NCBI GenBank assembly: GCA_964559555.1
Contig: CAZLHM010000006.1
Location: 9,008-73,007 of the forward strand
Length of the DNA stretch: 64,000 nt
Direction of reading: 5' to 3'
Source of the DNA: an uncultured Candidatus Bathyarchaeia archaeon
GTDB lineage: Archaea > Thermoproteota > Bathyarchaeia > 40CM-2-53-6
Under the pieces are notes generated by a model, which was given only the letters and a program-made list of their open reading frames with translations, did not search any database and was not told the origin of the DNA. Made by a program: the position numbers and the translations under genes. The first letter of the stretch is position 1, and the number at the start of each line of letters is the position of its first letter. Below, piece after piece: positions 35,480-51,418 of this stretch.

Positions 35480-36157
35480 TTGAAGGATGAGGTTATCCAG
35501 AGACAACTCGCGGATGCAATAGTGAGAGGGGAGTCGGGGTTGGCCGAGGCGAAGGCCAAGGTCATTGCGCAGTATGCAAAGGATCCGACTGAGGCACTCG
35601 ATGATCTGTACGACGCGTTCAGGGCCGCCGAGAGTCTCCACATGATGGGCGAGTATGATGAGAATCGTTTTGATGCCTCGGCGCATGCGGCTCAGGCTTC
35701 ACTGAACGCTCTCAAGTCATCATTAATACCAAGGCAGACCCGTTTCAAAGCAAGGATCTGTATTGGGCCGGTTTCTGGTGGGAGAGATGTCATCAGTACA
35801 ATAGTCGCGGCGATGCTCACAGCGACGGGTCATGAAGTGACTGATCTGTCAAGAGCGACAACTTCCAAGGAATTGTTGAGGAACGCCGAGCAGAGCAACG
35901 TGGAGCTCCTTATCGTGAGCTTCAACGAGCAAACTGTGTCACTTGCAGAGGAGTTCATCAGCGAATTCGAGTCTGGCGGGTTCCAGAGCAAGTTCCAAGT
36001 GATGGCGTTCGCCAGAGGGTCTCCTCCAAACATCCCAGTGTCCGACCGCTTCGCTCTTGTCGTCCATGAGCCGCTCGAACTGCTGAGCAAGGTTACCGAG
36101 TTCCTGATCCGAAAGCAACGTTCCGTTCAAAAGGATGAGGATGACTCAACAGACTGA
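35480..36157 (+). CDS. Corrinoid-protein-like (B12-binding cap plus B12-binding Rossmann domain) lacking the DxHxxG histidine
   Basis: An N-terminal helical cap is followed by ICIGPVSGGRDVISTIVAAMLTATGHEV. The D is retained, but the His is replaced. Confidence 0.45.
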   Translation: MKDEVIQRQLADAIVRGESGLAEAKAKVIAQYAKDPTEALDDLYDAFRAAESLHMMGEYDENRFDASAHAAQASLNALKSSLIPRQTRFKARICIGPVSGGRDVISTIVAAMLTATGHEVTDLSRATTSKELLRNAEQSNVELLIVSFNEQTVSLAEEFISEFESGGFQSKFQVMAFARGSPPNIPVSDRFALVVHEPLELLSKVTEFLIRKQRSVQKDEDDSTD

Positions 36158-36245: not shown

Positions 36246-37493
36246 ATGGTCGCTCGTAAGGCGCTCCTAGTGATCTGCGACGGCATGGGAGATCGGGTAC
36301 AGAAAGAGTTTGGCGACGAGACTCCGCTTGGGGTCGCCAAGACTCCCACCTTCGATCAGCTAGCTTCCACAGGGTCCATCGGACTCGTGGATCCCGTGAG
36401 TCCTGGGATAAGGCCTGGAAGCGACTACGCAACGACAGCCATGCTCGGCTACGATCCACGCATCTACTATACTGGTAGAGGCGGACTTGAAGCCGCAGGC
36501 GCAGGAATGGAACTCGGACCGGGCGATGTCGCTTTCCGCTGCAACTTCTCAACGGTCGACGACGACCTAACCGTCATCGATCGCCGCGCAGGCAGGATCG
36601 AGCAAGGAACCGACGAGATAGCTGAAACGATTCGTCGGATCCGACCCCGAGGTGTCAAGGGGTTGAAGATCGACTTCGAGGCGACCATCGCACATCGCGG
36701 CGTGTTGATCCTCAAGGGCAGAGGACTATCGCGGATGGTTTCTGATGTTGACCCTCACAAGGAAGGCGTGAAGATTCTGAAGTGCGAGCCGTTGGATGAC
36801 TCATCCGCCGCCAAGAGAACGGCCTCAGCAGTCAACGACTTCGTTGCGCAGTCCTTCAGGCTGCTCAAGGATGACCCTGTCAATGCTGAAAGGATCCGCC
36901 AGGGCAAACGTCCTGCAAACATCATACTTCCAAGAGGGGCGGGAACACTGCCTCCCTTCAAGTCACTAGTGGAATTGTATGGGATGAAGGTGGCGTGCGT
37001 CGCCGCCGTTGCGCTCGTCAAAGGTGTCTGCAAGATCGCGGGAGCCGAACTCGTGGCAGCCGATGGTGCTACTGGCGGTCTCGACACGAACTATGAGGGA
37101 AAAGCAAATGCGGCTCTGAAAGTGATGGAGGATCATGACCTCGTCATTCTTCACATTAAGGCGCCTGATGTCGCCAGCCATGATGGTGACTTCAAGAAAA
37201 AGGCGACCGTGATCGAGAAAATAGATGCCGCTGTCGGAAAGATCCTACCATCGCTCGATGCGAGTTCCACATATGTGATAGTGACAGCTGATCACACGAC
37301 GCCAGTGAGTGTGAAGGATCATACGGGCAATCCCGTTCCGTTGCTGATCAATGGTCCAGGCGTTCCGCGTAGCAGTGTAACGAAGTTTAGCGAGAATACG
37401 GCATCACGAGGCAATCTAGGCAGGCTTCACGGCCTTGACATAATGCCGATCATCGCCGACTACCTTGACAAGGCAAAGAAGTTCGGTTTCTGA
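36246..37493 (+). CDS. apgM: 2,3-bisphosphoglycerate-independent phosphoglycerate mutase, archaeal type
   Basis: ALLVICDGMGDR and the metal-binding DHTTP region (VTADHTTPV) are present. Confidence 0.85.
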   Translation: MVARKALLVICDGMGDRVQKEFGDETPLGVAKTPTFDQLASTGSIGLVDPVSPGIRPGSDYATTAMLGYDPRIYYTGRGGLEAAGAGMELGPGDVAFRCNFSTVDDDLTVIDRRAGRIEQGTDEIAETIRRIRPRGVKGLKIDFEATIAHRGVLILKGRGLSRMVSDVDPHKEGVKILKCEPLDDSSAAKRTASAVNDFVAQSFRLLKDDPVNAERIRQGKRPANIILPRGAGTLPPFKSLVELYGMKVACVAAVALVKGVCKIAGAELVAADGATGGLDTNYEGKANAALKVMEDHDLVILHIKAPDVASHDGDFKKKATVIEKIDAAVGKILPSLDASSTYVIVTADHTTPVSVKDHTGNPVPLLINGPGVPRSSVTKFSENTASRGNLGRLHGLDIMPIIADYLDKAKKFGF

Positions 37494-37501
37494 GTGAGAA
37501 C

Positions 37502-38647
37502 ATGCCGCATAGCAGCCGATCGATGGCAGGAGTTGTGATCCTCCTCGCACTCGCAGTGTTTGCGCCTTGTGTGACTGGACAGGTTGAAGAGTCCGCGCTG
37601 CTGAGAATCGTGAGCGTGGAATACCCTCGCCAAGTTCCCCGCTCACATTCGTTCGCAGTCGAGATCCGGGTCGAGTACGCCTTTCGCGACTATAGCGACA
37701 TCTATGCCGCAATCTACGAGAGCCCGCAGGGCAAGCTGGAGCGTCTTCTGTGGCGAAGCGATACTGAGCACCTGATACGGGTCGGGGATAGAACCTACCA
37801 AATACAACTGAAATCCCCGTCGATTGAGAAGCAGTGGTTGCTGACGGCTTACGTTTTCTTTCGTAACGTCACGGGATTGTTCTACTTCACCGATCGAGAA
37901 CATGGACCCGGATTTGCCGAGGTCAGCATCAAGGTCGCTGACAATGCCAAACTAACGGTGCACACGCCGTATGGGAATGTTCCCATATGGGTTGATGGAA
38001 CGGAGCGCTTCACAGACGCGAACGGGTTTCTAGTCAATGATGTCAGAGTGCTCGCTGAACACACGATTGCGGCTCCTGACGAGTTGTCGATCATCTCGGG
38101 TTGGAGGGCGGTATTTGTCGGTTGGAACGGCACTGACTCAGCGAATCCGATAACCCTGATTGTCAGGAACGACATCAAGCTGGCGGCCGAGTTTCGAGAC
38201 GAGTTCTATCTCGATATCGTTTCGGATATCGGAGGGGTGAGAGGAACTGGTTGGTATCGTTCGGGTGCTGTCGCCAACTTCTCGGCGACTGCGATAATTC
38301 CATCAGAGGGCTGGGAGGGTCTCTTTGGGGTTCGGCATAGGTTCACCGGTTGGAGCGGAGATGTTGTCAGTGGGGCTCCAAACGAGTCGATAGTGATGGA
38401 TCGTCCCAGCAGAGTTGTCGCAAGCTGGTCCGTTGACTACAGTGGCTCGCTCTATCTAGTTACCATAGTTGCCGCTCTTGGGGTTGTGGGATTGGCGGCT
38501 CTGCTTGTGAGGCGAACGACAACGCGTGGCTCAGAGGAAATCGCCGAGCCTGCTGTGAAGGCGTTCTGCATGTTCTGCGGCGCCGAGATCGACCCGGACG
38601 CCAGTTTCTGCTCGAAGTGCGGAAAGAGCCAGCTCAGTTCGAGCTAG
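37502..38647 (+). CDS. Secreted, membrane-anchored repeat protein with a cytoplasmic C-terminal zinc ribbon
   Basis: It has a signal peptide, GW-containing repeats (ISGWRAVFVGWNG; GTGWYRSG...RFTGWSGD), a single TM, then CMFCGAEIDPDASFCSKCG. Confidence 0.5.
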   Translation: MPHSSRSMAGVVILLALAVFAPCVTGQVEESALLRIVSVEYPRQVPRSHSFAVEIRVEYAFRDYSDIYAAIYESPQGKLERLLWRSDTEHLIRVGDRTYQIQLKSPSIEKQWLLTAYVFFRNVTGLFYFTDREHGPGFAEVSIKVADNAKLTVHTPYGNVPIWVDGTERFTDANGFLVNDVRVLAEHTIAAPDELSIISGWRAVFVGWNGTDSANPITLIVRNDIKLAAEFRDEFYLDIVSDIGGVRGTGWYRSGAVANFSATAIIPSEGWEGLFGVRHRFTGWSGDVVSGAPNESIVMDRPSRVVASWSVDYSGSLYLVTIVAALGVVGLAALLVRRTTTRGSEEIAEPAVKAFCMFCGAEIDPDASFCSKCGKSQLSSS

Positions 38648-39191
38648 TCGAGGGTCTCCGAGCTGGACGGAGCATCTGTATCGCGCGGATCGCGAAGTCT
38701 CCGATCTCCGGAATGAATAGGTCCAGAACGATCACAAGAAATGCGACCGAGAATACCCCCAAGATCAGCCCGGTTGGATAGTGCGCCAGAGACCAAGGAA
38801 GGATACCTCTGTAGAGAAGGAGGATCTCAAGCGCGATTCTGCCAATGTTCGCTAGGAAGACGAGGACAGCCACGCTCGCGATCGCGGTCACCTTCCTTCT
38901 CCATGCCACCTGAGGGAGCGGGATCAAAAGGCCAACAAAGACCGCGATTACCTGCACGCCGGTGCACATTCGTTCGATCTCGAACTCGTTCACAAACGCT
39001 TTGCCGTCACTGACCCACGAGTGAGCCGGAATCCCAATCCAGCTCAGCAAAGCGGCAGAGCTTTCGGCCGTGACCTTCTCGAGGAGAAAGTAGTTCGGTA
39101 AGTAGTATAGCCCTGCGGACAGAACCACAGCTACCGCGGTGTATTCGAGAATGTTGCGGAACCCCACAGTTCTGTCAATGAGTGCTCGCAT
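38634..39191 (-). CDS. Archaeosortase/exosortase family transpeptidase (small ArtE/F-like)
   Basis: The polytopic 185 aa product has the conserved active-site Cys (FEIERMCTG) and the downstream N-x-x-R motif (LANIGRIA) characteristic of exosortase/archaeosortase. Confidence 0.65.
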   Translation of the reverse strand: MRALIDRTVGFRNILEYTAVAVVLSAGLYYLPNYFLLEKVTAESSAALLSWIGIPAHSWVSDGKAFVNEFEIERMCTGVQVIAVFVGLLIPLPQVAWRRKVTAIASVAVLVFLANIGRIALEILLLYRGILPWSLAHYPTGLILGVFSVAFLVIVLDLFIPEIGDFAIRAIQMLRPARRPSTSSN

Positions 39192-39550
39192 GGCCGTTTC
39201 ATCATCTCATCCGTGTGACTTGAGTCTTGCTCCTCACTCAAAGCCAATGGCATGATATGGCAGAGATGAGTTTGGACTCGACTGAAACAAGATCGCCGTG
39301 GCGTGGTGATTATGATCAAACGTTGTTCTTCCTTTGCTGGTTGAAGGTCTTGTATCGATAGCGGTCTTCTTTGGCTCAGCATCGATCGGCAACGACTCGA
39401 TCCTCATCTACGTTGCCGATTGGAGCAACTGATGGGTAGGTCTCTTTGACGGTCGCGGAGGAAGTAAACTTGGGTGAAACAGCTGCACAAGTCAGGCCCT
39501 AGGGGGTCTAGGATGACCAAACGTGCGAGGGATTCCGGGAATAAGGCAGC

Positions 39551-39566
39551 TTTTTATAAAAATAAA
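39551..39566 (+). promoter_or_regulatory. TATA-rich element (TTTTTATAAAAATAAA) upstream of the 39584 membrane-protein gene
   Basis: The AT-rich TATA consensus lies about 30-40 nt before the GTG/ATG starts. Confidence 0.4.
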
Positions 39567-39583
39567 GCGACTTCCTAGCTTGA

Positions 39584-40015
39584 GTGGTTGTAGTAATGGT
39601 CGAGGTTCGCAAGGGAGTTGGGCTGGCGATAATTCTCGCGAGCATAGTGGCGTGGGTGTATGGTGCGATGAACCTGTACAACGAGAAAGTGCTCGAGATG
39701 TCAGTCGCAGATGTCCCAAGAGTGATCGAGATCGGGTTCGTACCGATCCTGATCGGAGCCGCGCTCTTCATATACGGGGTCACGGTGCAAGGATACAAGA
39801 CAAAAGCCGGACTCGTTGTCCATACAATCGCCAACATTCCATACTTCTACGCCATATACTCGGTATACCAACTAGGACTACGACATGTGCTCAATCCCAT
39901 GCAGTATTTCCAGGAGACGGTGGTCTTCTGGGGTCTGGGACTGGCCTTGAACGTCGCGGGCATCGTGGCGAACCAGATAGGACGCAAGAAACCGACAGTC
40001 ACCCCAACTGGATAG
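39584..40015 (+). CDS. Hypothetical 4-TM membrane protein
   Basis: The 143 aa ORF has a hydrophobic periodicity. It starts at GTG 39584 or ATG 39596. Confidence 0.4.
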   Translation: MVVVMVEVRKGVGLAIILASIVAWVYGAMNLYNEKVLEMSVADVPRVIEIGFVPILIGAALFIYGVTVQGYKTKAGLVVHTIANIPYFYAIYSVYQLGLRHVLNPMQYFQETVVFWGLGLALNVAGIVANQIGRKKPTVTPTG

Positions 40016-40410
40016 TGAGCAGCAAGAACATGGCTCTTACAGGGATCGTTGGGGTCCATTAGATACATAGTGTGAGCAACCAAGGCTCGCGAGCACGTCT
40101 ATCGCTAACGATCACGAATTGCGCTTGCCAAAGTCCGCGTTCAGTCTGGAAATGAGTCGACAGATCAGTCCTGTGTAACTGGCCTCGTGGCTTACGCACA
40201 CCACTGTACATGGCCCGAGCTTGACAACCACAAGAGACGCTTGGGGCTCTTTGGTAGTGAGGCCGAGGCCTTGTAACCCGTGCGGGGTGCGCTTGGTACG
40301 CCTAGCCGCCGTGCTCAGGATGGCATGAGGTAGGTTATGTGGCTCCCGCGTGTCATCGATGGTCTGACGCATTGTCTTATATTATCTGAGAGGATATTGT
40401 ATGGAGAACC

Positions 40411-40809
40411 GTGTCATCTCTTCTAGAAGACCCCGCTCATCGAGTCGTGAACTTGGAGAGGAGACGCTATCGGGGACGTATCCAGATAGCCGCTGGCATT
40501 CTCGAGATCGCTAGGACGGGTTCTCGCAAGACCAGAATAATGTATCTTGGTAACCTAAGCTTCGAGGTCCTACAGAAGTATCTGGATCTGCTACTGAAAC
40601 TGGGCATGATCGAAGCGCAAGGTCGCTCGGAGAGGCAATACTTCACAACCGAGAAGGGCCTTGGGTTCCTGAACGACTTCTACCAGCTTCGGAGGCACGC
40701 AGGGATCGTCCAAGAAAAGAAGGCTGTCCTAGAGAGGAGCCTGTCCATGACGACTGTCGAAGTCGATGAGACTCCACGAAAGGTTGAGGAGATCGGTGCT
40801 GCACCATGA
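40411..40809 (+). CDS. Winged-helix DNA-binding protein (archaeal HTH_45-like regulator)
   Basis: The 132 aa product has RIQIAAGILEIARTGSRKTRIMYLGNLSFEVLQKYLDLLLKLGMIE. It starts at GTG, and a TATA-like TTATATTA lies at 40377-40384. Confidence 0.5.
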   Translation: MSSLLEDPAHRVVNLERRRYRGRIQIAAGILEIARTGSRKTRIMYLGNLSFEVLQKYLDLLLKLGMIEAQGRSERQYFTTEKGLGFLNDFYQLRRHAGIVQEKKAVLERSLSMTTVEVDETPRKVEEIGAAP

Positions 40810-41285
40810 ATCCTCGTTGTTACGATAGAGTTTTAGGTTCCGACACTCGCGTCCCTATTGTCTCCCCGGCTACTCGTGGAACAGAACTTGGATGCGTCTC
40901 TCGTGTTTCCAAGGGCTGCGTCGCCGAGACTCACGCGATCAGCTATTCGAGTCTGTTGAGATTCAGGGTCCGGGGAGTGCGGAACGGCAACTGGCGGGCT
41001 CTCAGCCGATTGGAGAGAGGACTCTACAATTGCGCGTTACTGTTGGCCAAGCGACGACAGAGGATAGTCAATGCCAAGTTGTTGGCGCCAATCAAAGCCA
41101 TTATCAGTAGACTGTTGGCCACTATTCGGACGCGCATAATCGCCATCGGCGAGGCTAGGGCCTGCGCTTTGTATGAAACCTATGCGAGAAACGGTGTCTT
41201 CAGATGGGCACCCGAAGCGGAGAGATGGCTCACCGATCCCAAAGCGGTCTTCTATCTTGGAGTTACAGAGTTGTTCAATCGATGA
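40806..41285 (+). CDS. Hypothetical protein (translationally coupled to the wHTH gene by an ATGA overlap)
   Basis: The 159 aa ORF has no recognisable motif. Confidence 0.35.
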   Translation: MNPRCYDRVLGSDTRVPIVSPATRGTELGCVSRVSKGCVAETHAISYSSLLRFRVRGVRNGNWRALSRLERGLYNCALLLAKRRQRIVNAKLLAPIKAIISRLLATIRTRIIAIGEARACALYETYARNGVFRWAPEAERWLTDPKAVFYLGVTELFNR

Positions 41286-41439
41286 AAGACCACGCGAGTA
41301 GACCCGCCTTCCAACCCTGCGACCACGGGAGACCAAGCTTTACAGACTTGGAGCCGGAGTACCACGGTAGCGAGGGGCAGTGTCACGCATCCGTACGCCC
41401 TTGGTTGACTGGTCAGTTGGATAAGATGAGAGGGTCCTA

Positions 41440-42741
41440 ATGGTCTCTCCGCCGGATCTAGCCTTGGCCCAACCTCTATCCGTAGACATCCTACTGACCA
41501 TATTTGTGTTGATCACTGCCGTGATCTTTTTGTGGTCGCTGTACAATCTGTCGATATTCGCAGCCGGGGTCAGGCGCTACTTCCGTATCCACGACAAGAG
41601 AGTGGATTCTGAACCCCAAAGCCGATCCCCGTTCATCTCTCTGATAGTCCCAGCCAAGAATGAAGAGAAAGTTATCGGGCGCGTCTTGGATTCTTTGCTG
41701 GATTTGCGATACCCGAAAGATAGGATGGAGGTCTTCGTTGTTGAAGATGGCTCGACAGACAACACCAAGGGAATAGCACTTCGCTATGCCTCTGAGCATC
41801 CGAACTTGATTCGCTGCATTCACAATGCTACTTCTGAGGGTAAACCCGCAGCTCTGAATCTCGCGCTTCAACAAGCACGTGGCAACATCGTGGGGGTGCT
41901 CGACGCCGACAATGTTCCGGACTCACGGCTGCTTGTCCACGTCGCCAAGTCTTTCGATGATAACGCGACCGTCGCCGTTCAAGGCATCACTGAATCGATA
42001 AACGCGCAAGCAAACATGTTGACGAAGGTAGTCTCCCTCGAGGAGGCTGCGTGGTTCAAGACCGTTCTGAATGGCAAAGATCACCTGAGGCTGTTTGTTC
42101 CGTTGACGGGAAGCTGCCAATTCATCAGGAGTAATGTGCTAAGGGAACTCGGAGGATGGGATAAATCGTCATTGGCAGAGGATGTTGAACTGGCCGCACG
42201 TCTTCTGGCCAACGGTCATCGAGTCAGATTCTGCGAGCAAGCTGTCACATCGCAGGAGGCGCCATCACGTCTGTCCCAGCTCTTCCGTCAACGATCAAGA
42301 TGGTACCGTGGGTACATAGAGACCGCCATCAAGTATGGGAGCCTTCTGACGAATCCCAATGGTCTCCGAGTCGACGCCGAGGTGACACTGTTCGGACCTA
42401 TCCTGTTGGGAATGAGCTTTGCCAACTACTGGCTGTCGTGGGCGGTCTTAACTTGGACGACGACGTTCGTTGCCAGAATCTTGGCGTATCTAATGGTTGG
42501 ACTTACGTCCGCCCTGTTGCTCGCCCTAGGACTCGGACTTGTGTACCTTGTGAGACCTAGAAGAATCTCCAACTTCCTGTGGCTGCCATTTATCTACGCA
42601 TACTGGTTCCTTCAAACCGTGATCGCGACCTACGCCTTGTCTCTGATGGTTCTACGCAGACCGAGGATCTGGGCGAAGACCGAGAAGACAGGTTCAGTCG
42701 ACAGCAGACATGAAACCAACACGACACCGATTGGAGAGTAG
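41440..42741 (+). CDS. Processive family-2 glycosyltransferase (CesA/NodC/PgaC/HAS-like synthase)
   Basis: An N-terminal TM precedes the GT-A domain (LIVPAKNEE, VEDGSTDNT, VLDADNVP). An ED motif (SLAEDVE) and QRSRW (QxxRW at 42289-42303) are followed by 4-5 C-terminal TM helices. Confidence 0.75.
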   Translation: MVSPPDLALAQPLSVDILLTIFVLITAVIFLWSLYNLSIFAAGVRRYFRIHDKRVDSEPQSRSPFISLIVPAKNEEKVIGRVLDSLLDLRYPKDRMEVFVVEDGSTDNTKGIALRYASEHPNLIRCIHNATSEGKPAALNLALQQARGNIVGVLDADNVPDSRLLVHVAKSFDDNATVAVQGITESINAQANMLTKVVSLEEAAWFKTVLNGKDHLRLFVPLTGSCQFIRSNVLRELGGWDKSSLAEDVELAARLLANGHRVRFCEQAVTSQEAPSRLSQLFRQRSRWYRGYIETAIKYGSLLTNPNGLRVDAEVTLFGPILLGMSFANYWLSWAVLTWTTTFVARILAYLMVGLTSALLLALGLGLVYLVRPRRISNFLWLPFIYAYWFLQTVIATYALSLMVLRRPRIWAKTEKTGSVDSRHETNTTPIGE

Positions 42742-42789
42742 GGCGAGCCATAGCTGCCTCCTGTTCCGTCGGCGAGCGGTGAGAATACT

Positions 42790-43887
42790 ATGATCGCGAG
42801 TCTCATAGTGACTATAGCTGTCGGCGCCGTCCTGCTTTTCTTGGCGAAGGGATACGAGAAAACAATGTCGCTAATCTCATCGAGGCATCAAAGGCGGAAT
42901 TCCGATCCACCAAGGATCAATGCGGATCTGCCACGGATAACTGTCATGATACCTACATTCAATGAGGCTGGTACGATCGCCAGAAAACTTGAGAATCTGT
43001 TTGACTCTGACTACCCTCGTGATCTCTTGGAGATCATTGTAGTGGACAGTTCCTTAGATGAGACTGGGGTGATCGCAAGTTCCTATCCTGTCAAGGTCGT
43101 GAGGTGCGATGCTGTAGGCAAGATCCGCGCCATAAATGAGGGAATCAAGCTCTGCAAGACAGACATAGTTGTCCTTACGGACTGTGACACAATTCTGGAC
43201 AGGAGATCGATTCTCTGCCTAGTTCAGTCGTTCTCAACTGATGTTGGAGCGGTTGGGGGAATCGTGAGGCCTAAGGGCAATGGTGAATGGTTCTCATCGA
43301 TGAAGAGCTCCTACCACGAATGGGATTGGGGACTCAGAGAGGTAGAGGGCACCGTTGACACCGTATGCTCGCTCGACGGCAACCTCGTCGCCTTCAGAAA
43401 GTCAATCATCAATGAGATACCGGGTGATGCCTTTGCAGATGATATGGAACTAACCTTCGCCATTAGGAAGAAGGGATACCGCTGCATCATTAGCAGAGGA
43501 GCCGTTGCCTACCAGATGATTCCCAATGGCTTGTCGCGGGATCTGCAGAGGATGCGGCGCATCATCAAGCTGACGATACTAACGTCTCTTAGGCATTCCC
43601 GGATGCTCTTCAGCACTAAGTACGGCTGGTTCTCAATGATTACGTTTCCATCTAGAAGATTTCTCAATCTGCTCACGCCTTTCATGTTGGCGTATGTCGC
43701 TGTATTTCTGTGGCTGTACAGCCCTCTGCTGCTCCTATCCGGCATCGCGCTTGCGATCGCGATCTCAATCCTTGGGTTAAGGAAAATCGGATACTACTGG
43801 ATACTTCTTTTGGCCCTGACACTGGCCTGGCTGGACATCTTCGCCGGGAATTTTCATAGAGGCGCTGTTTGGCAGAAGGTCCGCTGA
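42790..43887 (+). CDS. Membrane-bound GT2 glycosyltransferase (paralogous architecture to 41440, QxxRW degenerate)
   Basis: It has VMIPTFNEA, VVDSSLDET, VLTDCDTILD (DxD) and LQRMRRI with no W, followed by C-terminal TMs. Confidence 0.7.
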   Translation: MIASLIVTIAVGAVLLFLAKGYEKTMSLISSRHQRRNSDPPRINADLPRITVMIPTFNEAGTIARKLENLFDSDYPRDLLEIIVVDSSLDETGVIASSYPVKVVRCDAVGKIRAINEGIKLCKTDIVVLTDCDTILDRRSILCLVQSFSTDVGAVGGIVRPKGNGEWFSSMKSSYHEWDWGLREVEGTVDTVCSLDGNLVAFRKSIINEIPGDAFADDMELTFAIRKKGYRCIISRGAVAYQMIPNGLSRDLQRMRRIIKLTILTSLRHSRMLFSTKYGWFSMITFPSRRFLNLLTPFMLAYVAVFLWLYSPLLLLSGIALAIAISILGLRKIGYYWILLLALTLAWLDIFAGNFHRGAVWQKVR

Positions 43888-43956
43888 TGCCTAGTACGCG
43901 CCCGCCAGAAGGTTGATCGAACGAGCAGCTCAACAGTCTGCCTTGTAGCTCGTTCT

Positions 43957-45042
43957 TTGCGGTCACATGCGGGAGATGGTAGGGCCGTCTACGCTAGAGG
44001 GCTCTATGCGGCGCTGAGAGAAAACGGGGTCGAGGTACGCATATGGGATCCACCCAGTCTTGGAAGAGCATTCGGCTCGGCCTTGAGTATCATCTGGTAT
44101 GATATCATCGCACCGTTCGTCTTCTTGATCCTTCCCAGCGCATACAGGCGATATCGCCTCATCCACGCCGCGTTTCCTGAACAAGGACTCTGGTTTCCCA
44201 TCTTGAAGATCAGGAAAGTTCTGACCGTGCACGACCTCAACCCTCTACTTGACAAGGGGTCATCACTGACACAGATACTATGGAACCTGTATGCACGAAT
44301 CATCTACTCGATTGCCATCGGATTTGCAGACCACATCATCGCAGTCTCGACGCAGACCAAAGACGAGCTTCAATCGATTGCCGGCGTCAAAGAGCATAGA
44401 ATAACGGTCATAGCTCCAGGAATAGCAGACGCGTTCACGCCGCGGCCGAGAACGATCAATCTCGACCCGCTCATCGGTTTCGTTGGAAAGCTGACTGAGA
44501 GAAAGAATGTAGGGTTCCTGCTGGATTCATTGAAGACCTTGACTATCTCAGATTCGTCCAGAAGGTGGAGATTGGCTATCTACTGTGGCGAGAGCGTCAA
44601 AGTAGAGAGGCCAGGATCCGTTGCGGGCCGAGATTCGGATGATCGGGTCACTTTTCATCCGTTTGTGCCTGCAACCGAGATGCCCAATGTCTATACCAGG
44701 TTCTTTGTTATGATATATCCGAGCAAACACGAAGGCTTCGGGTTCCCAATACTGGAAGCGCAGAGATGCGGCACTCCAGTGATCATCACGGAGGGATCGA
44801 GAATCCCTGACGAAGTCGCTAGGTACACGTTGAAAGCGAAGAGCCCCTTGGAGGCAGCTCACATCTGCATCAGACTCATCGAGAACAAGGAGCTCTATGA
44901 TCAGACTTCGCGTGAGGCCTCCGTGTACGCGGGGACTTTCTCTTGGCAAGTGCAGGCAAGGGAAGTCGAAAACTTGTACGAATCCCTATTGGCTTCGAGC
45001 GTGAAGTCCGACCGGGCATCGGATCAGCTGCATACAGAATGA
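43957..45042 (+). CDS. Glycosyltransferase family 1 (GT4 retaining, GT-B fold)
   Basis: The EX7E motif is EGFGFPILEAQRCGTPVI. It starts at TTG. Confidence 0.75.
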   Translation: MRSHAGDGRAVYARGLYAALRENGVEVRIWDPPSLGRAFGSALSIIWYDIIAPFVFLILPSAYRRYRLIHAAFPEQGLWFPILKIRKVLTVHDLNPLLDKGSSLTQILWNLYARIIYSIAIGFADHIIAVSTQTKDELQSIAGVKEHRITVIAPGIADAFTPRPRTINLDPLIGFVGKLTERKNVGFLLDSLKTLTISDSSRRWRLAIYCGESVKVERPGSVAGRDSDDRVTFHPFVPATEMPNVYTRFFVMIYPSKHEGFGFPILEAQRCGTPVIITEGSRIPDEVARYTLKAKSPLEAAHICIRLIENKELYDQTSREASVYAGTFSWQVQAREVENLYESLLASSVKSDRASDQLHTE

Positions 45043-45953
45043 AACACGTCGTACTGACTGGCATATCATCGACCGGATGCGAGACAGAAGCAGGGCGCGT
45101 CAACCAAGGCCGTGTATCCGTTGTCATTCCAACCTATCAGTCATCTAGAGACATCGCGACCTGTCTTCGGAGCGTTAGAGATCAGACCTACAAGGTCGAC
45201 CAGGTCATAGTCGTGGATGCGTTCAGCAGAGATGGAACTGCCAGTGTGGCCTCGGAGCTGGGCGCGAGTGTGATTCTTGCCCACGGCACACAGGCCGCCG
45301 CAAGGAACGTCGGTTTATGTAGTTCCGAGGGTGACTACGTGCTCTTCTTGGATTCGGATCAAGAGCTGGAACCTGGCGTCGTGGAGGACTGTGTGACACA
45401 ATGTGCGAGCGGTGATGTTTATGCTGTGAAGATCCCGGAGTTCTTCGTGGGTCACGATTTCTGGGGTAGGTGTTCCGCGCTCTGGAAGAACCACGTAGTG
45501 GCCGTTTGGGGGTCGGAAGGTGGAATTCCAAGGTTCTACAAGCGAACCGTTTTGACGGGACCCGACGTTTTCAAGACTTGCCTGCGCCTATGGGAAGACC
45601 ATGAACTCTACCAGAGGACCAAGTCGACGGTGCTGGGCAAGGAGAGCTGGTGCAGGTCGCGAATCATTCACCATGAGAAAGTCTCACCAAAGGGCTTGGT
45701 CAGGAAGTATCTATCATACGGGCGCTCAATCGTCACCTTCAAGAGGACCATCACCGAAACCCCATTGGCCTCAACCATCAAGCTCGCCCTATCGACGGCA
45801 TTTCACGTCATCAGGACTCCCGGCAACTCACCGTTGATTTTCTGCGGATGCGTTGTCCAGATTGTTCTGAAGGGATTCTCAGTGGCCCTAGGCTCTCTGC
45901 TTGGTCTGGCGTCGCTAAGTGATTGTCGATCTCCTCCTCAAGTCCCGGCATGA
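45039..45953 (+). CDS. Glycosyltransferase family 2
   Basis: VSVVIPTYQSSRDIATCLRSVRDQTY, VVDAFSRDGT and FLDSDQE are present. The start MKHVVL at 45039 overlaps the upstream stop (ATGA). The tracked ORF start at 44943 is an over-extension. Confidence 0.75.
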   Translation: MKHVVLTGISSTGCETEAGRVNQGRVSVVIPTYQSSRDIATCLRSVRDQTYKVDQVIVVDAFSRDGTASVASELGASVILAHGTQAAARNVGLCSSEGDYVLFLDSDQELEPGVVEDCVTQCASGDVYAVKIPEFFVGHDFWGRCSALWKNHVVAVWGSEGGIPRFYKRTVLTGPDVFKTCLRLWEDHELYQRTKSTVLGKESWCRSRIIHHEKVSPKGLVRKYLSYGRSIVTFKRTITETPLASTIKLALSTAFHVIRTPGNSPLIFCGCVVQIVLKGFSVALGSLLGLASLSDCRSPPQVPA

Positions 45954-45976
45954 ATCTCTGAGGCCAAGTCCTTCCT

Positions 45977-47872
45977 TTGAGAACGGAAAGAATCATCTTC
46001 CGAAGTAAACTGCGCCCGATATTGGTCATGCTCCTGACAGCGACCACAGCAGCCTGTCTCGTGGCTAGGACGCCTATCCGAGCTGAGAGTAGCGACGATT
46101 GGATGGACTGGGCCAACATTGCGTGGTCATACTTCCAGCCAAGTGTTGGGGTCAATTCGAACACCGGCCTACATTACCCTACGTCAGGTTGGCATCGATT
46201 CACAGATTGGGACGTGGGCGTCTATGTCGACGCGATCATGGACGCAGAGAAACTCGGCATCGTCAGCAGAGAGGGAACTTGGGGATCAGACTTCAGGATA
46301 GAGAGAGTGCTCAGCTTTCTTGAGACACGACAGCTGACAAGCGATGGCTTGCCTTACGCACAATACGACGCTGAGACCGGCAAGGTTCCTAGTGATATTG
46401 GAAGCAAGACCGCTCATCAGTCCGACAGCGGAAAGATGCTCATAGCCCTCGGCGAATTGAGGAATCTGAGACCGGGGCTGACAACAAGGATCAACGCCCT
46501 TGTCGCGAGACACAACTTCACCAAGTTTGCCGAGAGCAACTACTTCTCGGGAAATGACGTGTATCCGTTCTATGCAGCTCAGGGTTACCGCGCCTTTGGA
46601 TACTCGACGCCGGCGCTGCGATCGCTCAACTCGTTAGGAGTTGGCGGGAAATTCGTTGACGTGTATGGCATACAACTCCCATTGGCACATGTAACATCGG
46701 AACCGCTGGTGTGGGCAATACTCGAGAACCACGTCGAGGATCCACTCTACAGAACCTATGCGGACAGGGCTTTCACAGCCCAACAGAAGCGGTACGAGGC
46801 TACGGGTAAGCTGACCGCGTTCAGTGAAGGCTCCTACTGGGACCCGCACAATTTTGTGTGGGAGCTGATCGTAAACTGGAATGGGGAGACCTGGGTCATA
46901 TACGCGTCGGGGAAGATCAACGTCGTCCCATTAGCCTATGCGAAGTTGGCATTCGCGTTCCACGCAATCTACCATACCCAGTACACGGCGTTGTTGGTTA
47001 ATGAGTTCTCTTCAATGTATGTGAGTCCTTCGGGAGGGTTCTATGAGGGCAAGTCGGAGCAGGGAGCAACGCTCGGGATCCTCAGTGACAAGACAAACGG
47101 CATGATCCTCGCCGCCGCCCGATACTACCTATCCAGTTCACAGCAGAAGGGATTCGAACTGCATCTTCAACCCTCAAACGCGACGGTCATTCGAGGAGGA
47201 AAGGCGAACTTCACCGTTCAGCTCGCGAGAATTGGCTTGTTCTCAGAGGAGGTGGCCCTGAGCTTGGCAGGGCTTCCAGCCGGCGCTTCATATCTCCTCG
47301 ATCGCTCACAGGCAACTCCGCCGGCGACTGTTGATCTACAGATCACGGCCTCGCCGAAAGCTCTAGTGGGCAGCTATGTCTTCAGCGTGAATGGAGCGAG
47401 CAAGAGCGTCTCGAATTCTGCCTCGGCAACCTTGATGGTGAGGTCGCTGACAACCACGACACTACAGCTGGAATCACTGACCGTAAGCCTCCCTGAGAAG
47501 GTGAAGATAGTGGGCAGCACTGGACCTCCGAGAGTAGCCGCCGTCACGCTGTACGTCAGCTTTAATGGCTCCACGTGGACGAAGCTCAAGACGGTCTACT
47601 CTAGCGAGAACGGCATATTTCGCGTGGTCTACTCGCCTCCGCAGCTCGGCACGTATGTGATTAAGGCTGAAGCTGCCGAATCTGAATACTACCTGGCGTC
47701 AGAGAGCCCTTCAGTGACGTTCACAGCTGTTCCAGAGTTCGCATTCATAACAACCGTGGCGATCATGCTTCTCGCGGTGCTATTACTGGTCAGATGCTCC
47801 ATGACATGGAAGCCATCGAGTACGCCGGGCAGAGTCATCATTCGAAACAGGTCAGGGTCCTACGTCTCCTAG
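45977..47872 (+). CDS. Secreted surface protein with a PEF-CTERM-like sorting signal (paralog A)
   Basis: A signal peptide (...ARTPIRAES/SDDW; likely start about 46028) precedes a conserved approximately 400 aa N-domain (WHRFTDWDVGVY), an Ig/CARDB-like domain and a transthyretin-like domain. The C-terminal VPEF is followed by a TM helix and a basic tail. Confidence 0.6.
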   Translation: MRTERIIFRSKLRPILVMLLTATTAACLVARTPIRAESSDDWMDWANIAWSYFQPSVGVNSNTGLHYPTSGWHRFTDWDVGVYVDAIMDAEKLGIVSREGTWGSDFRIERVLSFLETRQLTSDGLPYAQYDAETGKVPSDIGSKTAHQSDSGKMLIALGELRNLRPGLTTRINALVARHNFTKFAESNYFSGNDVYPFYAAQGYRAFGYSTPALRSLNSLGVGGKFVDVYGIQLPLAHVTSEPLVWAILENHVEDPLYRTYADRAFTAQQKRYEATGKLTAFSEGSYWDPHNFVWELIVNWNGETWVIYASGKINVVPLAYAKLAFAFHAIYHTQYTALLVNEFSSMYVSPSGGFYEGKSEQGATLGILSDKTNGMILAAARYYLSSSQQKGFELHLQPSNATVIRGGKANFTVQLARIGLFSEEVALSLAGLPAGASYLLDRSQATPPATVDLQITASPKALVGSYVFSVNGASKSVSNSASATLMVRSLTTTTLQLESLTVSLPEKVKIVGSTGPPRVAAVTLYVSFNGSTWTKLKTVYSSENGIFRVVYSPPQLGTYVIKAEAAESEYYLASESPSVTFTAVPEFAFITTVAIMLLAVLLLVRCSMTWKPSSTPGRVIIRNRSGSYVS

Positions 47873-47994
47873 GAATCGTGGACTACGTGACATGGAATTT
47901 GCGTCTTCAAGACCAGAGCAAGGGGGGCCCAGACTCGTGGTGAGACAAATCGATTCCTATGCTCTACCGCATAGAAACAGCATCATTTCTGCGA

Positions 47995-48012
47995 CACGGG
48001 GGAGCCCCCCCT
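47995..48012. repeat. Perfect C7-TCTA-G7 hairpin within a G/C homopolymer-rich inter-paralog spacer
   Basis: The sequence ccccccc tcta ggggggg is flanked by further G5, G6 and G6 tracts between 47915 and 48055. Confidence 0.5.
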
Positions 48013-48062
48013 CTAGGGGGGGTACCCTTGCCCATTCGCGCTTGGCTGGGGGGCTGCTCATC

Positions 48063-49841
48063 ATGATCCTAGTGGCATTGGCATTTGTGGGCAATGAGAT
48101 ATCAAACGCCGAGTCTAGTGATAACTGGGTTGGCTGGGCTAACACCGCTTGGAAGTACTTCCAACCTGAAATCGGCGTGAATTCGAATACCGGTCTGCAC
48201 TATGCCACCTCAGGATGGCATCGCTTCACAGATTGGGATCTCGGCGTGTATATTGAGGCGATGATCGACGCCGAGAAGCTAGGCATACTAGGTCGGGACG
48301 GGACATGGGGCGCAAACTACAGGCTCGACAAGATCCTTGGCTTTCTCGAAAGTCGGCAACTTTCGAGTGATGGGCTACCATTCGCCCAGTACGACGCGGA
48401 GACGGGCCATGTTCCTAGCGACATAGGAACTAGGACGGCTCATCCATCTGACTGTGGCAGGCTGCTGCTCTCCTTGGATGACCTCAGAGTTTTCAGACCT
48501 GACCTCACAGCTAGAATCGGCTCGCTCGTTGCCAGACACAACTTCCAAGCGCTCGCTGAGAGCAGCTACTTCGCTGGGAACGACATCTACCCAGTATACC
48601 TCGCCCAAGGTTACCATGCTTTTGGTTTCTCAACGCCCAGGCTGAGATCCGTTGAGTCTTTGGGCGGCGGAAGTTACGTGTCCGTGTACGGTGAGAGTCT
48701 ACCGAAGGCATGGGTTACAACAGAGCCACTCCTGTCAGCGATACTCGAGAATCGGTCGGTCCATGTCCGCTATAGAACATATTCGGACAGGGTTTTCTCA
48801 GCTCATCAGAAGAGGTACGAAGCGACCGGGAATCTAACAGCATTCAGTGAGGGTTCATACTGGGGACCGTACTACTATGTCTACGAGTGGGTCGTGAATG
48901 CTTTGGGTGAAACTTGGACGGTCTATGCGTCCGAGAAGATACATGCCGTGCCACTTGTCTACTCAAAGATTGCCTTCGCGTTCCACGCAATCTACCACAA
49001 CCAATACACCAACCTTCTGGTGAGTCAGCTGTCACCTCTACAGTCGAGCAGCCCCTCTGGAGGTTACTATGAGGGCAAGTCGGAAGAGGGCGCGACGCTT
49101 TCAGTCTTGAGCGATAAGACGAACGGAATGATCCTCGCAGCTGCCCGCTATTATCTAACGCACGAATCGCAACCAACATTCGAACTAAGCTTTCAACCGT
49201 CAAGCCTCTCGGTCATCAAGGGAGGCAACTCAACATTGTTCGTGCAGCTGACACCCATCGGGGGATTCGGCGACCCTGTCACCCTAACTGTCATGGATGT
49301 GCCATCTGGGGTCTCCTGCCAACTAGGTCAATCGCAAGCAACACCGCCTGCGACAGTGTCCCTCCAAGTCACGGCATCGATTGAAATGTCAGTCGGCACC
49401 TATGAGATCGGTGTGAGTGGAGTTAGCAGTTCTGTCTCCAAGCAATCCCTAGCCACCCTGACGATTCGATCGACGACCAGTACAACGATTCAGCTATCAA
49501 CACATACGGCAAACGTGAGTGAGGCGGTAGAAATCCTCGGCAGTGCTCAGCCCCCGAGAACGGCGACAATAGTGTTTCTTGTGAGTTTCAACGGCTCGAC
49601 GTGGACTCCACTGACAACCGTCAACTCGCACGAAAACGGCACTTTCCGCACGGAGTTCTCACCACTCGAACCAGGAGCATACATGATCAAAGCACAAGCG
49701 GCGGAGAGCGAGTACTACCTGTCTTCGGAAAGCGAGCCTGTAACGGTGACGGCTGTTTCGGAGTTCTCCTCAGTCTTCGTCTTGGCGATCGCACTCTCGG
49801 TGGCCGTTGTGTCCACTACCTTTCTGCGTGAGCGATCCTGA
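48063..49841 (+). CDS. Secreted surface protein with a [S/P]EF-CTERM sorting signal (paralog B)
   Basis: The start is MILVALAFVGNEISNAES/SDNW (the tracked ORF start 47892 is probably an over-extension). It is about 65-70% identical to paralog A throughout. The C-terminal SEF is followed by a TM and LRERS-COOH, the classic archaeosortase-signal geometry. Confidence 0.6.
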   Translation: MILVALAFVGNEISNAESSDNWVGWANTAWKYFQPEIGVNSNTGLHYATSGWHRFTDWDLGVYIEAMIDAEKLGILGRDGTWGANYRLDKILGFLESRQLSSDGLPFAQYDAETGHVPSDIGTRTAHPSDCGRLLLSLDDLRVFRPDLTARIGSLVARHNFQALAESSYFAGNDIYPVYLAQGYHAFGFSTPRLRSVESLGGGSYVSVYGESLPKAWVTTEPLLSAILENRSVHVRYRTYSDRVFSAHQKRYEATGNLTAFSEGSYWGPYYYVYEWVVNALGETWTVYASEKIHAVPLVYSKIAFAFHAIYHNQYTNLLVSQLSPLQSSSPSGGYYEGKSEEGATLSVLSDKTNGMILAAARYYLTHESQPTFELSFQPSSLSVIKGGNSTLFVQLTPIGGFGDPVTLTVMDVPSGVSCQLGQSQATPPATVSLQVTASIEMSVGTYEIGVSGVSSSVSKQSLATLTIRSTTSTTIQLSTHTANVSEAVEILGSAQPPRTATIVFLVSFNGSTWTPLTTVNSHENGTFRTEFSPLEPGAYMIKAQAAESEYYLSSESEPVTVTAVSEFSSVFVLAIALSVAVVSTTFLRERS

Positions 49842-49843: not shown

Positions 49844-51418
49844 TTGCGGTTTCCGCTACGCAACCAGAACAACGTGCACCGGCCCGTTGTCACCTCCACT
49901 GGTAGGACTGGTAATCTAGAGCGGAGTCATGATCTTCGGCCTGCTGTGATGGCCTTTCTAGTTCCTTTGGTCATCCGCACGATTCCAGAGGTCATCGCAT
50001 GGCCTTACCCGTTGGGCTTCGATACCGTCTTCTTCTACGTGCCATGGATGCTTCAAGGATATCCTTTCAACTTCTCGTTGCTCGACTTGCTCAGGCAAAC
50101 GAGCCTCTTTCCGGCTGTTGCTACATTGTTGAATCGATGGGTCATAAGCGATCCGATACTGGTCATCAAGGTTCTTGGGCCGCTGCTCTACGGCCTACTA
50201 GGGATTTCGATCTACGAGTTTTCCATTAGGGGGCTCCGTTGGAGTGAGAGAAAATCGCTGATTCTCGTGTACGTTGCGTCAGTATACTTCGTTTCGCTCT
50301 GCATATCTTGGGAGCTGTATCGTCAAATGCTCGGGACAATCTTCCTCCTTCTTGCACTCATAGCCTATACGTCATTCGATGGAAAGGCGCGATATCTTGC
50401 ATTATCCTCCTGTGCCGTACTTGTAGTGATGTCCCATGAATTGGTCGCCGTCATTCTCCTGCTGTCCGTGATGGGCGACGGCGTTTTCAATTTTCTTAGA
50501 AAGAGATACAAGTCAATATCTGTTCTCAAAGTCGCGCTTGCTCTAGTTCCTGCGGGCGTACTTTTCGTCTGTCAGCGATACGGCCCTACTGAGCTGGGCG
50601 CAAACGTGTTGATAGAGGTCTTCAAGGTTGATGCGATCACTATGGCCACACATGTATTTGGTTTCTTGATCTACAGTTTCGCATTTTTGGTTCCGCTGGC
50701 AGCTTACGGGGCGAGACGAGTAGGATCAGGCGTGGTCCATTCGTGGTTTGGCATCTCGCTGGCTCTTGCAATTTGGCCGGTCGCGTTTCCCTTGGCACCC
50801 GCATTCTGGTTTCGTTGGGCGATGTTCATGGTCTACCCACTCGCGATCTATTTCACAGGTGGCTTGTGCGACCTCTTCTCGTTGGCGGGAGGGCGTTCGG
50901 TTGTTGCGCTCAAGGCAACTGCCGTATTGCTCATCCTATCGCTAAGCGTATTGTCAGGCTACTACATCGCAGCCGCCCCTGAGAACTCACATCCTTACTT
51001 CTCCGATCTCAACCCCTACAAGACGTACATCCAATCCTCCATGCTACAGAACACGATTCCGTTGGAAGATGTGGATTCGACAATTGCAGCACTTTCTTGG
51101 TTGGAAGATCGAACGAACGAGCATTCCGTGCTGATATTGCATGAGGCATTCTACGCATGGGCACTTCTGTACACGCACTCGCCCACCTCGATCATTCTGG
51201 TACGTGAAAACAAGCCTCTTTCAGCTGTGACCCGAGAGCCTGCTCTGGGTATGCTGATGGATGAGTCGTCACTCGTGGCTGAGAACGGCTATCAGGTCTA
51301 CACAATATGGTGGGCGAATGGAAAGGGATGGTATATGATTCCAGAATTGCCTAATCAGTTCTCTCTCCTAATGCAATTTGGGAATATCGGCGCTTACGCC
51401 TATGTCGGCGAAGAATGA
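49844..51418 (+). CDS. Large polytopic membrane protein (>=10 TM), possibly GT-C/polymerase-like
   Basis: The likely start is MAFLVPLV at about 49949. The product is hydrophobic throughout with no clear catalytic motif. Confidence 0.45.
   Translation: MRFPLRNQNNVHRPVVTSTGRTGNLERSHDLRPAVMAFLVPLVIRTIPEVIAWPYPLGFDTVFFYVPWMLQGYPFNFSLLDLLRQTSLFPAVATLLNRWVISDPILVIKVLGPLLYGLLGISIYEFSIRGLRWSERKSLILVYVASVYFVSLCISWELYRQMLGTIFLLLALIAYTSFDGKARYLALSSCAVLVVMSHELVAVILLLSVMGDGVFNFLRKRYKSISVLKVALALVPAGVLFVCQRYGPTELGANVLIEVFKVDAITMATHVFGFLIYSFAFLVPLAAYGARRVGSGVVHSWFGISLALAIWPVAFPLAPAFWFRWAMFMVYPLAIYFTGGLCDLFSLAGGRSVVALKATAVLLILSLSVLSGYYIAAAPENSHPYFSDLNPYKTYIQSSMLQNTIPLEDVDSTIAALSWLEDRTNEHSVLILHEAFYAWALLYTHSPTSIILVRENKPLSAVTREPALGMLMDESSLVAENGYQVYTIWWANGKGWYMIPELPNQFSLLMQFGNIGAYAYVGEE

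Follow-up and report, generated by a model that had tools for sequence, protein, structure and literature searches.

A new archaeosortase subfamily with a putative hybrid PEF/PGF signal lies next to an apparently separate glycan island in a Bathyarchaeia genome

The exosortase/archaeosortase family is defined by a Cys/Arg/His triad, an intramembrane active site and a tripartite signal (Haft preprint 10.1101/2023.06.07.544157; for the triad and the signal, see also the review PMC6098224), and the adjacency of an enzyme to signal-bearing proteins is the standard in silico evidence for pairing the two (Haft preprint 10.1101/2023.06.07.544157). In archaea, this biology leans almost wholly on ArtA of one haloarchaeon. 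The pairing of ArtC with PEF-CTERM proteins has also been published (PMC5244752), and a 2018 review placed archaeosortases in a subset of Euryarchaeota only (PMC6098224). Here, we describe an archaeosortase gene (38634–39191, − strand) and two DUF3131 genes, encoding paralogs A (45977–47872, + strand) and B (47892–49841, + strand), found in a 64,000-nucleotide stretch of DNA from an uncultured Candidatus Bathyarchaeia archaeon (contig CAZLHM010000006.1, positions 9,008–73,007), hereafter called the window. Our literature search found no paper on a Bathyarchaeia archaeosortase or on Loki-CTERM. With moderate confidence, we read the locus as two functionally separate units lying side by side, in which the DUF3131 enzymes of this lineage are PEF-tailed and paralog A is a probable client of the sortase in trans. 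The sortase belongs to a known sorting system, in which it is best described as a new subfamily whose signal combines the PEF and PGF types and whose clients include new enzymes.

The 185-aa protein belongs to the archaeosortase family, as it passes both signature models (TIGR04178, 37.0 bits, cutoff 23; PF09721, 32.1 bits, cutoff 25.7) and shares invariant Cys, Arg and His residues with 17 aligned homologues (54–100% identity). The conserved positions are Cys76 (in MCTG; nt 38964–38966), N115-x-x-R118 (Arg118, nt 38838–38840) and His137 (in LAHYPTG; nt 38781–38783), and the catalytic residues lie at or inside three strong hydrophobic segments (residues 72–90, 107–125 and 142–160). An archaeosortase with Cys...NxxR motifs had been predicted at this position from the sequence alone, and this original prediction held. 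The comparison with archaeosortase hidden Markov models (HMMs) that it proposed succeeded at the level of the superfamily signatures, while no named subfamily was reached. Indeed, scores remained below the cutoffs of heimosortase (heimdallarchaeosortase; 43.8 bits, cutoff 130), ArtH (42.7, cutoff 200), ArtA (22.4, cutoff 75), ArtD (19.3, cutoff 125), ArtE (18.7, cutoff 95) and pacearchaeosortase (13.7, cutoff 80), and the ArtC model gave no match at E ≤ 0.1. Homologues formed 563 clusters at E ≤ 1e-3, many of them 60–77% identical to the window protein, and members of the family were detected in Bathyarchaeia, Methanomethylicus and other Thermoproteota (39 species-representative genomes in all). 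The enzyme thus appears to represent a new subfamily, outside every named one, in Bathyarchaeia and Methanomethylicus.

The likely cognate signal was read from the genes around the sortase. Open reading frames (ORFs) were extracted from the 39 sortase genome loci (656 kb) and searched with the window proteins, and ORFs of at least 100 aa ending with P-[G/E]-F, a hydrophobic stretch and a basic pair were counted. The non-DUF3131 ORFs of 79 archaeal metagenome loci centred on DUF3131 (737 kb) served as controls. Signal-bearing ORFs represented 48 of 1342 in the sortase loci and 5 of 1092 in the controls (odds ratio 8.1, p = 2.5e-8). At least one ORF with the P[G/E]F, transmembrane (TM) helix and basic arrangement was found within 10 kb in 32 of the 39 sortase loci, and 29 of the 47 non-redundant signal ORFs lay within 1 kb of the sortase gene. 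Pro and Phe were fixed by the search pattern; around them, Ile or Val occupied position −1 in 45/47 signals, a Pro followed the Phe (+3) in 39/47, and the middle position was Gly in 25 and Glu in 22. The distance from the first basic cluster to the C-terminus ranged from 7 to 33 residues. Since these ORFs cluster by sortase genes, [I/V]P[G/E]F(P), a hybrid of the PEF and PGF types, is taken to be the signal of this sortase clade.

Three putative client families recur at these loci. The first is a 160-aa CarboxypepD_reg/PEGA-domain protein ending with SHVPVPEFP-helix-RRTKRKK, found in about 19 Bathyarchaeia loci, whose gene is directly upstream of the sortase gene and co-directional with it (L009–L025, L038 and L043; about 9280–9840, + strand). 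The second is an M6-peptidase/CARDB protein of about 1000 aa that ends with PPIPGFP[I/V]E-helix-RRRR. The third, in Methanomethylicus-type loci, is a convergently encoded 370-aa protein with a CBM_56-like region and the ending LEIPGFPFES-helix-KRR (L026–L042; about 10500–11630, − strand). Because their genes directly adjoin the sortase gene, the 160-aa VPVPEFP and 370-aa LEIPGFPFES families look like dedicated sortase clients. The IPGFPxE tails reach the cutoff of the Loki-CTERM model (NF033507; 25.9, 23.4 and 19.9 bits, cutoff 19.9, with one more at 19.6), and the best model for the VPVPEFP tails is PEF-CTERM (TIGR03024), at just 13.4–14.6 bits for a cutoff of 23. In the window, no homologue of the small VPVPEFP protein, not even as a remnant, or of the 370-aa IPGFPFE protein was detected. 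Its only homologues of the large M6/CARDB IPGFP proteins are encoded at 37502–38647 and 53856–55706, both without a P[G/E]F tail. The latter gene (+ strand, 616 aa) scores 115 bits against the M6/CARDB-type proteins, and its product ends with a TM helix and an acidic tail.

Within the window, only two ORFs end with [P/S][G/E]F and a hydrophobic helix near the C-terminus, and these are paralogs A and B. The original prediction correctly described them, coordinates included, as tandem, diverged paralogs (57.6% identical); as the genes are paralogs, their tails are not independent observations. Paralog A (631 aa; PF11329, E 6.8e-41) ends with VPEF-AFITTVAIMLLAVLLLV-RCSMTWKPSSTPGRVIIRNRSGSYVS, a candidate sorting signal (47729–47869, + strand) made of V585-P-E-F, a 17-residue hydrophobic helix and the 26-residue tail RCSMTWKPSSTPGRVIIRNRSGSYVS, which contains four Arg and one Lys. 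Paralog B ends with VSEF-SSVFVLAIALSVAVVSTTFL-RERS, a degenerate sorting-signal-like tail (49755–49838, + strand) with Ser623 at the Pro position. Read from sequence, both tails have the tripartite layout, with the motif abutting the TM helix and basic residues after it, so that the [P/S]EF, helix and basic tail first noticed there are real. The tail of paralog A, previously counted as 27 residues and described as unusually long, has 26 and falls within the 7–33 residues of the sortase-linked signals.

It should be noted that the start of paralog B is ambiguous: its length is 592, 634 or 649 aa depending on the gene caller, and with 48063 as the start the signal peptide would lose its n-region. 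The signal-peptide codons are closely preceded by a G5-AG-C7-TCTA-G7 tract (gggggagccccccctctagggggggt; 47996–48025). With ATG 47892 or GTG 47940 as the initiation codon the tract would be translated, and with TTG 48042 or ATG 48063 it would belong to the 5′ leader. This tract could be a slippage-prone or structured element.

The C-terminal pattern is conserved in orthologues, as the original prediction would expect. Seven DUF3131 homologues of the closest clade (56–68% identical; P0123, P0124, P0129, P0132, P0142, L044 and L052) keep [V/I]PEF abutting the helix, with differing flanking residues, and the L044 orthologue of paralog B (68% identical) has IPEF at the VSEF position. Orthologue tails score 22.3 (P0129), 16.3, 15.5, 11.0 and 10.4 bits on TIGR03024 (cutoff 23). 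Of 76 non-redundant DUF3131 homologues, 22 more distant ones have a plain TM anchor without the motif and 50 have no anchor, which suggests that the PEF tail was acquired recently in the lineage that owns this sortase. Because the DUF3131 enzymes carry PEF-type tails only in this lineage, where their relatives have plain anchors or none, paralog A is probably a sortase client acting in trans. The status of paralog B is doubtful because a Ser stands at the Pro position.

Several observations count against a role of these tails as sorting signals. Neither window tail matches TIGR03024, even at E ≤ 10, nor Loki-CTERM or any other curated CTERM model, so the PEF-CTERM search proposed along with the original prediction came back empty for both. 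In paralog A, the Phe is not followed by the usual Pro, and a single Arg makes up the first basic 'cluster'. In paralog B, Ser623 replaces a Pro that is found, by construction of the search, in 47/47 sortase-linked signals; the window holds no other S[G/E]F tail, and permuting PGF is known to block processing by ArtA (PMC6098224). A local HMM built from the 47 sortase-linked tails ranked paralog A first among the window ORFs (11.2 bits, E 0.016 among 1357 tails), which is weak support only as the TM helix dominates the score; this HMM separates signals poorly from plain anchors, A scoring modestly and B being unranked. The sortase gene also lies 6.8 kb from paralog A, on the opposite strand and with unrelated genes between, at the far end of the distance distribution.

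The C-terminal segments could therefore be ordinary, permanent TM anchors in which [P/S]EF is incidental and no archaeosortase processing takes place, as the motif-less or missing anchors of most DUF3131 homologues, the failure of all CTERM models, the Pro lost in B and the long, weakly basic tail of A would suggest. We consider this somewhat unlikely, given that [V/I]PEF is kept against the helix in seven homologues despite differing surroundings, that the same [I/V]P[G/E]F core marks sortase-adjacent proteins across the class and that the P0129 orthologue falls less than one bit short of the PEF-CTERM cutoff. The length of the tail of A is no obstacle either, as the tails of sortase-adjacent signals reach 33 residues and ArtA accepts a substrate whose C-terminus extends far beyond the signal (PMC6098224). 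Of the geometry first proposed for recognition by an archaeosortase, the part concerning paralog A is made plausible by the signal of the clade; paralog B departs from that signal at the invariant Pro.

The original prediction had gone further and proposed a module made of the archaeosortase, polysaccharide synthases and substrates. In such a case, the sortase, the processive GT2 synthases and the two PEF-tailed proteins would be co-inherited, as an archaeal counterpart of the exosortase/PEP-CTERM exopolysaccharide (EPS) loci. These genes are indeed all within 11 kb in this genome, the glycosyltransferases announced between the sortase and the paralogs are present (three GT2 genes and one GT4 gene, 41440–45953), and exosortases often sit inside EPS loci (Haft preprint 10.1101/2023.06.07.544157). 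Sortase clients also tend to lie close to the enzyme; in loci L005 and L125, a different large PEF-tailed protein (ending with TPTPEF... and ILTPEF..., respectively) is encoded in the variable flank, about 5 kb upstream. However, the GT2/GT4/DUF3131 island adjoins the sortase solely in L001–L003, which are copies of the window contig. GT2/DUF3131 genes are found near the sortase in none of the 39 genome loci (L005, with a sortase identity of 73%, among them) and in none of the 4 closest-relative loci (L123–L126, 75–76%), and the sortase is present in 0/79 of the DUF3131 loci. A related contig of 1.69 Mb (Ga0315314_1000001) keeps the order GT2-DUF3131-DUF3131-membrane protein (GT-C)-GT4 with no sortase within 10 kb, and in the window itself the sortase gene is oriented opposite to the island, with unrelated genes intervening.

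Synteny thus appears to refute most of the proposal of a single module, which we regard as very improbable; the co-occurrence check across relatives suggested with it showed no link of the island to the sortase outside the copies of the window contig. The conserved linkage between sortase and polysaccharide genes that characterizes exosortase-type EPS loci is missing here (0/39, 0/4 and 0/79 loci), and the apparent likeness to such a module was attractive, but wrong. What can be retained is that genes for clients, whatever their kind, tend loosely to lie near the sortase, with no apparent tie to polysaccharide synthesis. We thus return to two units, the sortase locus and the glycan island being, as far as gene order tells, separate modules in a species-specific juxtaposition. 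Those homologues that have a name are annotated as Bathyarchaeia or Bathyarchaeota. Independent assemblies from ENA, JGI and Logan data all yield the identical contig, and the GC content is even along the whole window (51–56%), so the island bears no compositional mark of foreign origin. As a separate observation, small secreted PEF-type proteins (VIPEFP or PIPEF, TM helix and basic residues) are encoded near signal-less DUF3131 genes in L057 (1104–1697 and 5446–6321), L058 (62–655 and 4497–5318) and L059 (446–1012), which suggests that PEF-type clients cluster around glycan genes in other lineages too.

Gene neighbourhoods also locate the seam between the two modules. In the four closest relatives with long contigs (sortase identity of 73% in L005, 75% in L123/L124 and 76% in L125/L126), one flank of the sortase is syntenic and comprises the zinc-ribbon protein, a 225-aa protein and SIR2, joined by phosphoglycerate mutase in some relatives and by AFOR, Fe-ADH, SCP2 or thiolase in others. 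The opposite flank varies by relative and contains HTH_45 genes and a Big-domain protein, a Wzx-like flippase, an M6 peptidase or toxin-antitoxin genes. As the zinc-ribbon side is syntenic and the other flank differs in each relative, the island is best seen as a lineage-specific neighbour. HTH_45 genes occur upstream of the sortase in L006, L021, L123 and L124, and homologues of the 159-aa protein accompany DUF3131 genes (L004/L045, L044, L047, L052, L055, L058 and L095) and were not found in the sortase loci of other species. Since HTH_45 stays with the sortase in the clade and the 159-aa gene with the DUF3131 loci, the seam falls between the HTH_45 gene (40411–40809, + strand; winged-helix HTH_45/Sso10a family, PF14947 E 5.6e-19, NF053610 75.4 bits, cutoff 60) and the 159-aa gene (40806–41285, + strand; function not known), with which the glycan module opens. 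These two genes overlap by 4 nt and are apparently translationally coupled, yet they are of different neighbourhoods.

On the sortase side, the constant neighbours elsewhere are the convergent zinc-ribbon protein and the 225-aa protein. The zinc-ribbon membrane protein (381 aa; 37502–38647, + strand; PF13240, E 3.3e-7) is convergent with the sortase gene, the 3′ ends overlapping by 14 nt, and its homologues directly adjoin the sortase in about 25 Bathyarchaeia loci, where most overlap or abut the 3′ end of the sortase gene. Besides the cytoplasmic zinc ribbon, the protein has a signal peptide, an ectodomain and a single TM helix. Its ectodomain is homologous to that of the IPGFP-tailed M6/CARDB proteins of about 1000 aa. 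It was considered as a sortase substrate and rejected, since P[G/E]F is absent before the TM helix in every orthologue; it may instead be a partner, regulator or decoy of the sortase. The 225-aa protein (35480–36157, + strand; a weak B12-binding-like match to PF02310, 23.7 bits, under the cutoff) has homologues beside the zinc-ribbon/sortase pair in most Bathyarchaeia loci. A phosphoglycerate-mutase-like gene (36246–37493) and a gene for a small membrane protein (39584–40015) complete this part of the window.

Both DUF3131 paralogs carry the PF11329 domain (E about 1e-41). Paralog A comprises a signal peptide, a predicted (alpha/alpha)6 domain of the beta-1,2-glucanase clan, Ig-like domains and the VPEF, TM and basic tail, and paralog B has the same architecture with its VSEF, TM and RERS ending. 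The AlphaFold model of paralog B (22-sequence alignment; mean pLDDT 89.8) contains an (alpha/alpha)6 barrel at residues ~20–367, two Ig-like domains at 372–565 and a terminal helix. Fold searches placed the barrel with the (alpha/alpha)6 barrels of the SGL clan, with the cyclisation domain of the cyclic beta-1,2-glucan synthase Cgs as the best structural match and the secreted catabolic beta-1,2-glucanases of GH144, GH162 and GH192–194 among the closest relatives. The beta-1,2-glucanase families and the related GH189 form clan GH-S, in which a Glu serves as general acid and an Asp or Glu as base; the catalytic positions of EeSGL1 are E221 and D149 (PMC12102758). In the DUF3131 proteins, D57, D59, D130 and E263 are invariant among 22 homologues. 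A phmmer search against PDB sequences gave nothing at E ≤ 1, and a profile search gave only E-values of 0.19 and 2.2, to GH144-like 'putative glucoamylases', so that sequence does not place the proteins in the CAZy families GH144, GH162, GH189 or GH192–194. The DUF3131 domain is, according to the model, an (alpha/alpha)6 barrel of the beta-1,2-glucanase clan, an assignment kept at the level of fold because sequence similarity to the solved members is insignificant. The two products, previously called surface proteins, are better described as glycoside-hydrolase-like enzymes.

The partners of DUF3131 were surveyed in the 79 metagenome loci, whose DUF3131 homologues reach as low as about 30% identity. 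Of the testable loci, 27 of 49 encode a homologue of the QRSRW GT2 no more than 3 kb upstream of DUF3131, and 23 of 43 encode a homologue of the 524-aa membrane protein at most 3 kb downstream. The GT2 (41440–42741, + strand; 433 aa, PF13641 E 2.7e-38) is a membrane-embedded synthase with QRSRW, of the QxxRW type, at residue 284. The membrane protein (49844–51418, + strand; 489–524 aa) has no Pfam or NCBIfam match, and its predicted model (pLDDT 86.2, pTM 0.89) was matched by Foldseek to STT3, ALG9, AftA and AglB (probability 1.00, TMq 0.5–0.62). It is therefore predicted to be a GT-C transferase and is a candidate for a new GT-C family; Asp25, invariant in a G-x-D motif of the first loop, would be catalytic. 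The next gene (51378–52391, + strand; 337 aa) encodes an AglJ-like polyprenyl-phosphate hexose synthase of the GT2 type (TIGR04182, 255.4 bits, below the cutoff of 325; NF041391, E 5.3e-33), which likely supplies the donor for the GT-C enzyme.

This trio of GT2, DUF3131 and GT-C genes, present in many Bathyarchaeia and on other archaeal metagenome contigs, constitutes a recurrent and apparently undescribed archaeal glycan module, which we consider the more original lead. We propose, tentatively and as a rather doubtful possibility, that it makes and processes an archaeal beta-1,2-glucan, with the cutting or cyclising enzyme placed outside the cell and held here by an archaeosortase-installed anchor. 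The product could be cyclic or similar to the osmoregulated periplasmic glucans. Naming the polymer a beta-1,2-glucan is hypothetical and derives from the predicted fold. Counting against our main reading of the locus, the GT2 and GT-C partners occur in just 55% and 53% of the testable loci, and the GT2 reaches no specific synthase-family cutoff, its best NCBIfam match being PgaC/IcaA at 131.8 bits, far below the cutoff of 422. The DUF3131 proteins might also be catabolic, that is, surface-anchored glucanases that harvest environmental beta-glucans and are no partners of the neighbouring synthase. Their kinship with the secreted GH144, GH162 and GH192–194 enzymes and their architecture, in which Ig-like domains would act as spacers for a hydrolase displayed at the surface, are compatible with this role. 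It is nonetheless decidedly unlikely in our view, since distantly related archaea commonly place the gene between the GT2 synthase and the GT-C rather than beside sugar transporters or kinases, and the best structural match is to a biosynthetic domain. A bacterial parallel points the same way, as an accessory block of K. pneumoniae combines a cellulose-synthase-like gene and three DUF3131 genes with OpgC (PMC12974863).

Within the reading as two units, the following division of labour can be proposed. The first unit (35.5–40.8 kb) would be the housekeeping archaeosortase locus of Bathyarchaeia, with its small polytopic Cys/Arg/His enzyme and the convergent zinc-ribbon protein. By analogy with the Haloferax ArtA, the sortase would cleave its secreted substrates where a C-terminal [I/V]-P-[G/E]-F-(P) abuts a TM helix and replace this helix with a lipid anchor. 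The second unit (40.8 kb to at least 63 kb) would be a cell-surface glycan island whose frequently conserved core consists of the QxxRW GT2, one or two DUF3131 enzymes and the GT-C. In this island, the GT2 would polymerise and extrude a beta-glucan; the DUF3131 enzymes held at the surface would cleave, trim or transglycosylate it; and the GT-C enzyme, fed with lipid-linked sugar by the AglJ-like synthase, would decorate the glucan or its carrier. Acting in trans, the sortase would remove the TM helix of paralog A and give the protein a lipid anchor, and paralog B, with its VSEF, may stay TM-anchored.

Between the QRSRW synthase and paralog A are encoded a second membrane GT2 with the variant motif QRMRR (42790–43887, + strand; 365 aa, PF13641 E 2.4e-21), a GT4 glycosyltransferase (43957–45042, + strand; 361 aa, Pfam Glyco_transf_4 and Glycos_transf_1, NCBIfam GT4 families) and a soluble-type GT2 (45039–45953, + strand; 304 aa as called, with the ORF open from 44943; PF00535, NCBIfam GT2 families). 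Downstream, the island runs on to at least 63 kb (52597–63174) with genes for a GDP-mannose 4,6-dehydratase (52597–53652), a phosphodiesterase (56057–57613), a GNAT (57510–58265), a PMT_2-like GT-C (58347–60392), a GT4 (60441–61721) and a sulfatase (61801–63174). A scan of the window for sigma-70 promoters and intrinsic terminators gave the same counts as shuffled sequence; these models are unsuited to an archaeon, and the result was discarded.

These assignments have several consequences. The putative clients of the sortase would be an M6 peptidase/CARDB protein, a small PEGA-like protein and, here, glucanase-like enzymes, and a signal read from gene adjacency offers testable targets for envelope studies in a sediment lineage that is abundant and uncultured. 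DUF3131 gains a clan assignment at the level of predicted fold, and an unannotated membrane protein of about 500 aa is recognized as a probable GT-C. To our knowledge, beta-1,2-glucans are currently described as bacterial products; if the proposed pathway is real, they would extend to archaea, and archaeosortases would gain an enzymatic class of clients.

Compared with known systems, the closest parallel is ArtA/PGF-CTERM of Haloferax volcanii, which shares with the Bathyarchaeia system the superfamily and the conserved Cys, Arg and His, the tripartite signal of P-G/E-F, TM helix and basic residues, and secreted surface clients. By analogy, the same outcome, removal of the helix and lipid anchoring, would be expected here. 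In contrast to ArtA, the Bathyarchaeia enzyme is much smaller (185 aa), stays far below the cutoff on the ArtA model and comes from a host outside the Euryarchaeota; its signal adds a Pro after the Phe and takes Glu or Gly in mid-motif; and it has a conserved convergent zinc-ribbon partner gene. ArtC/PEF-CTERM (TIGR03024), known from methanogens and ANME-2, shares the PEF tripeptide and is the best curated model for the orthologue tails and the small VPVPEFP proteins, whereas the sortase itself is without an ArtC match, these tails remain at 10–22.3 bits, under the cutoff of 23, and those of the window are unmatched. Loki-CTERM (NF033507) accepts IPGFPxE tails beside homologous sortases elsewhere, and heimosortase and ArtH are the nearest enzyme models; here, however, the DUF3131 tails of the window are unmatched and the enzyme scores are far below the cutoffs of 130 and 200. 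The bacterial exosortase/PEP-CTERM EPS loci (XrtA, EpsH) have a homologous enzyme and the same tripartite logic, with glycosyltransferases nearby in this genome alone. They differ in that the polysaccharide linkage is not conserved in our case, the motif is PEF/PGF rather than PEP, and there is no outer membrane. For the glycan module, Cgs (GT84, GH189 cyclisation domain and GH94) and OpgH/OpgG of E. coli likewise combine a synthase with a domain that cuts or transfers glucan. The similarity of DUF3131 to the solved enzymes of the SGL clan is not significant in sequence (E 0.19), and, unlike in Cgs, the archaeal parts are separate proteins and the synthase is a GT2, reaching no named synthase cutoff, rather than a GT84. 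In contrast to both bacterial systems, the archaeal (alpha/alpha)6 enzyme is predicted to be extracellular and membrane-tethered, and a GT-C belongs to the set.

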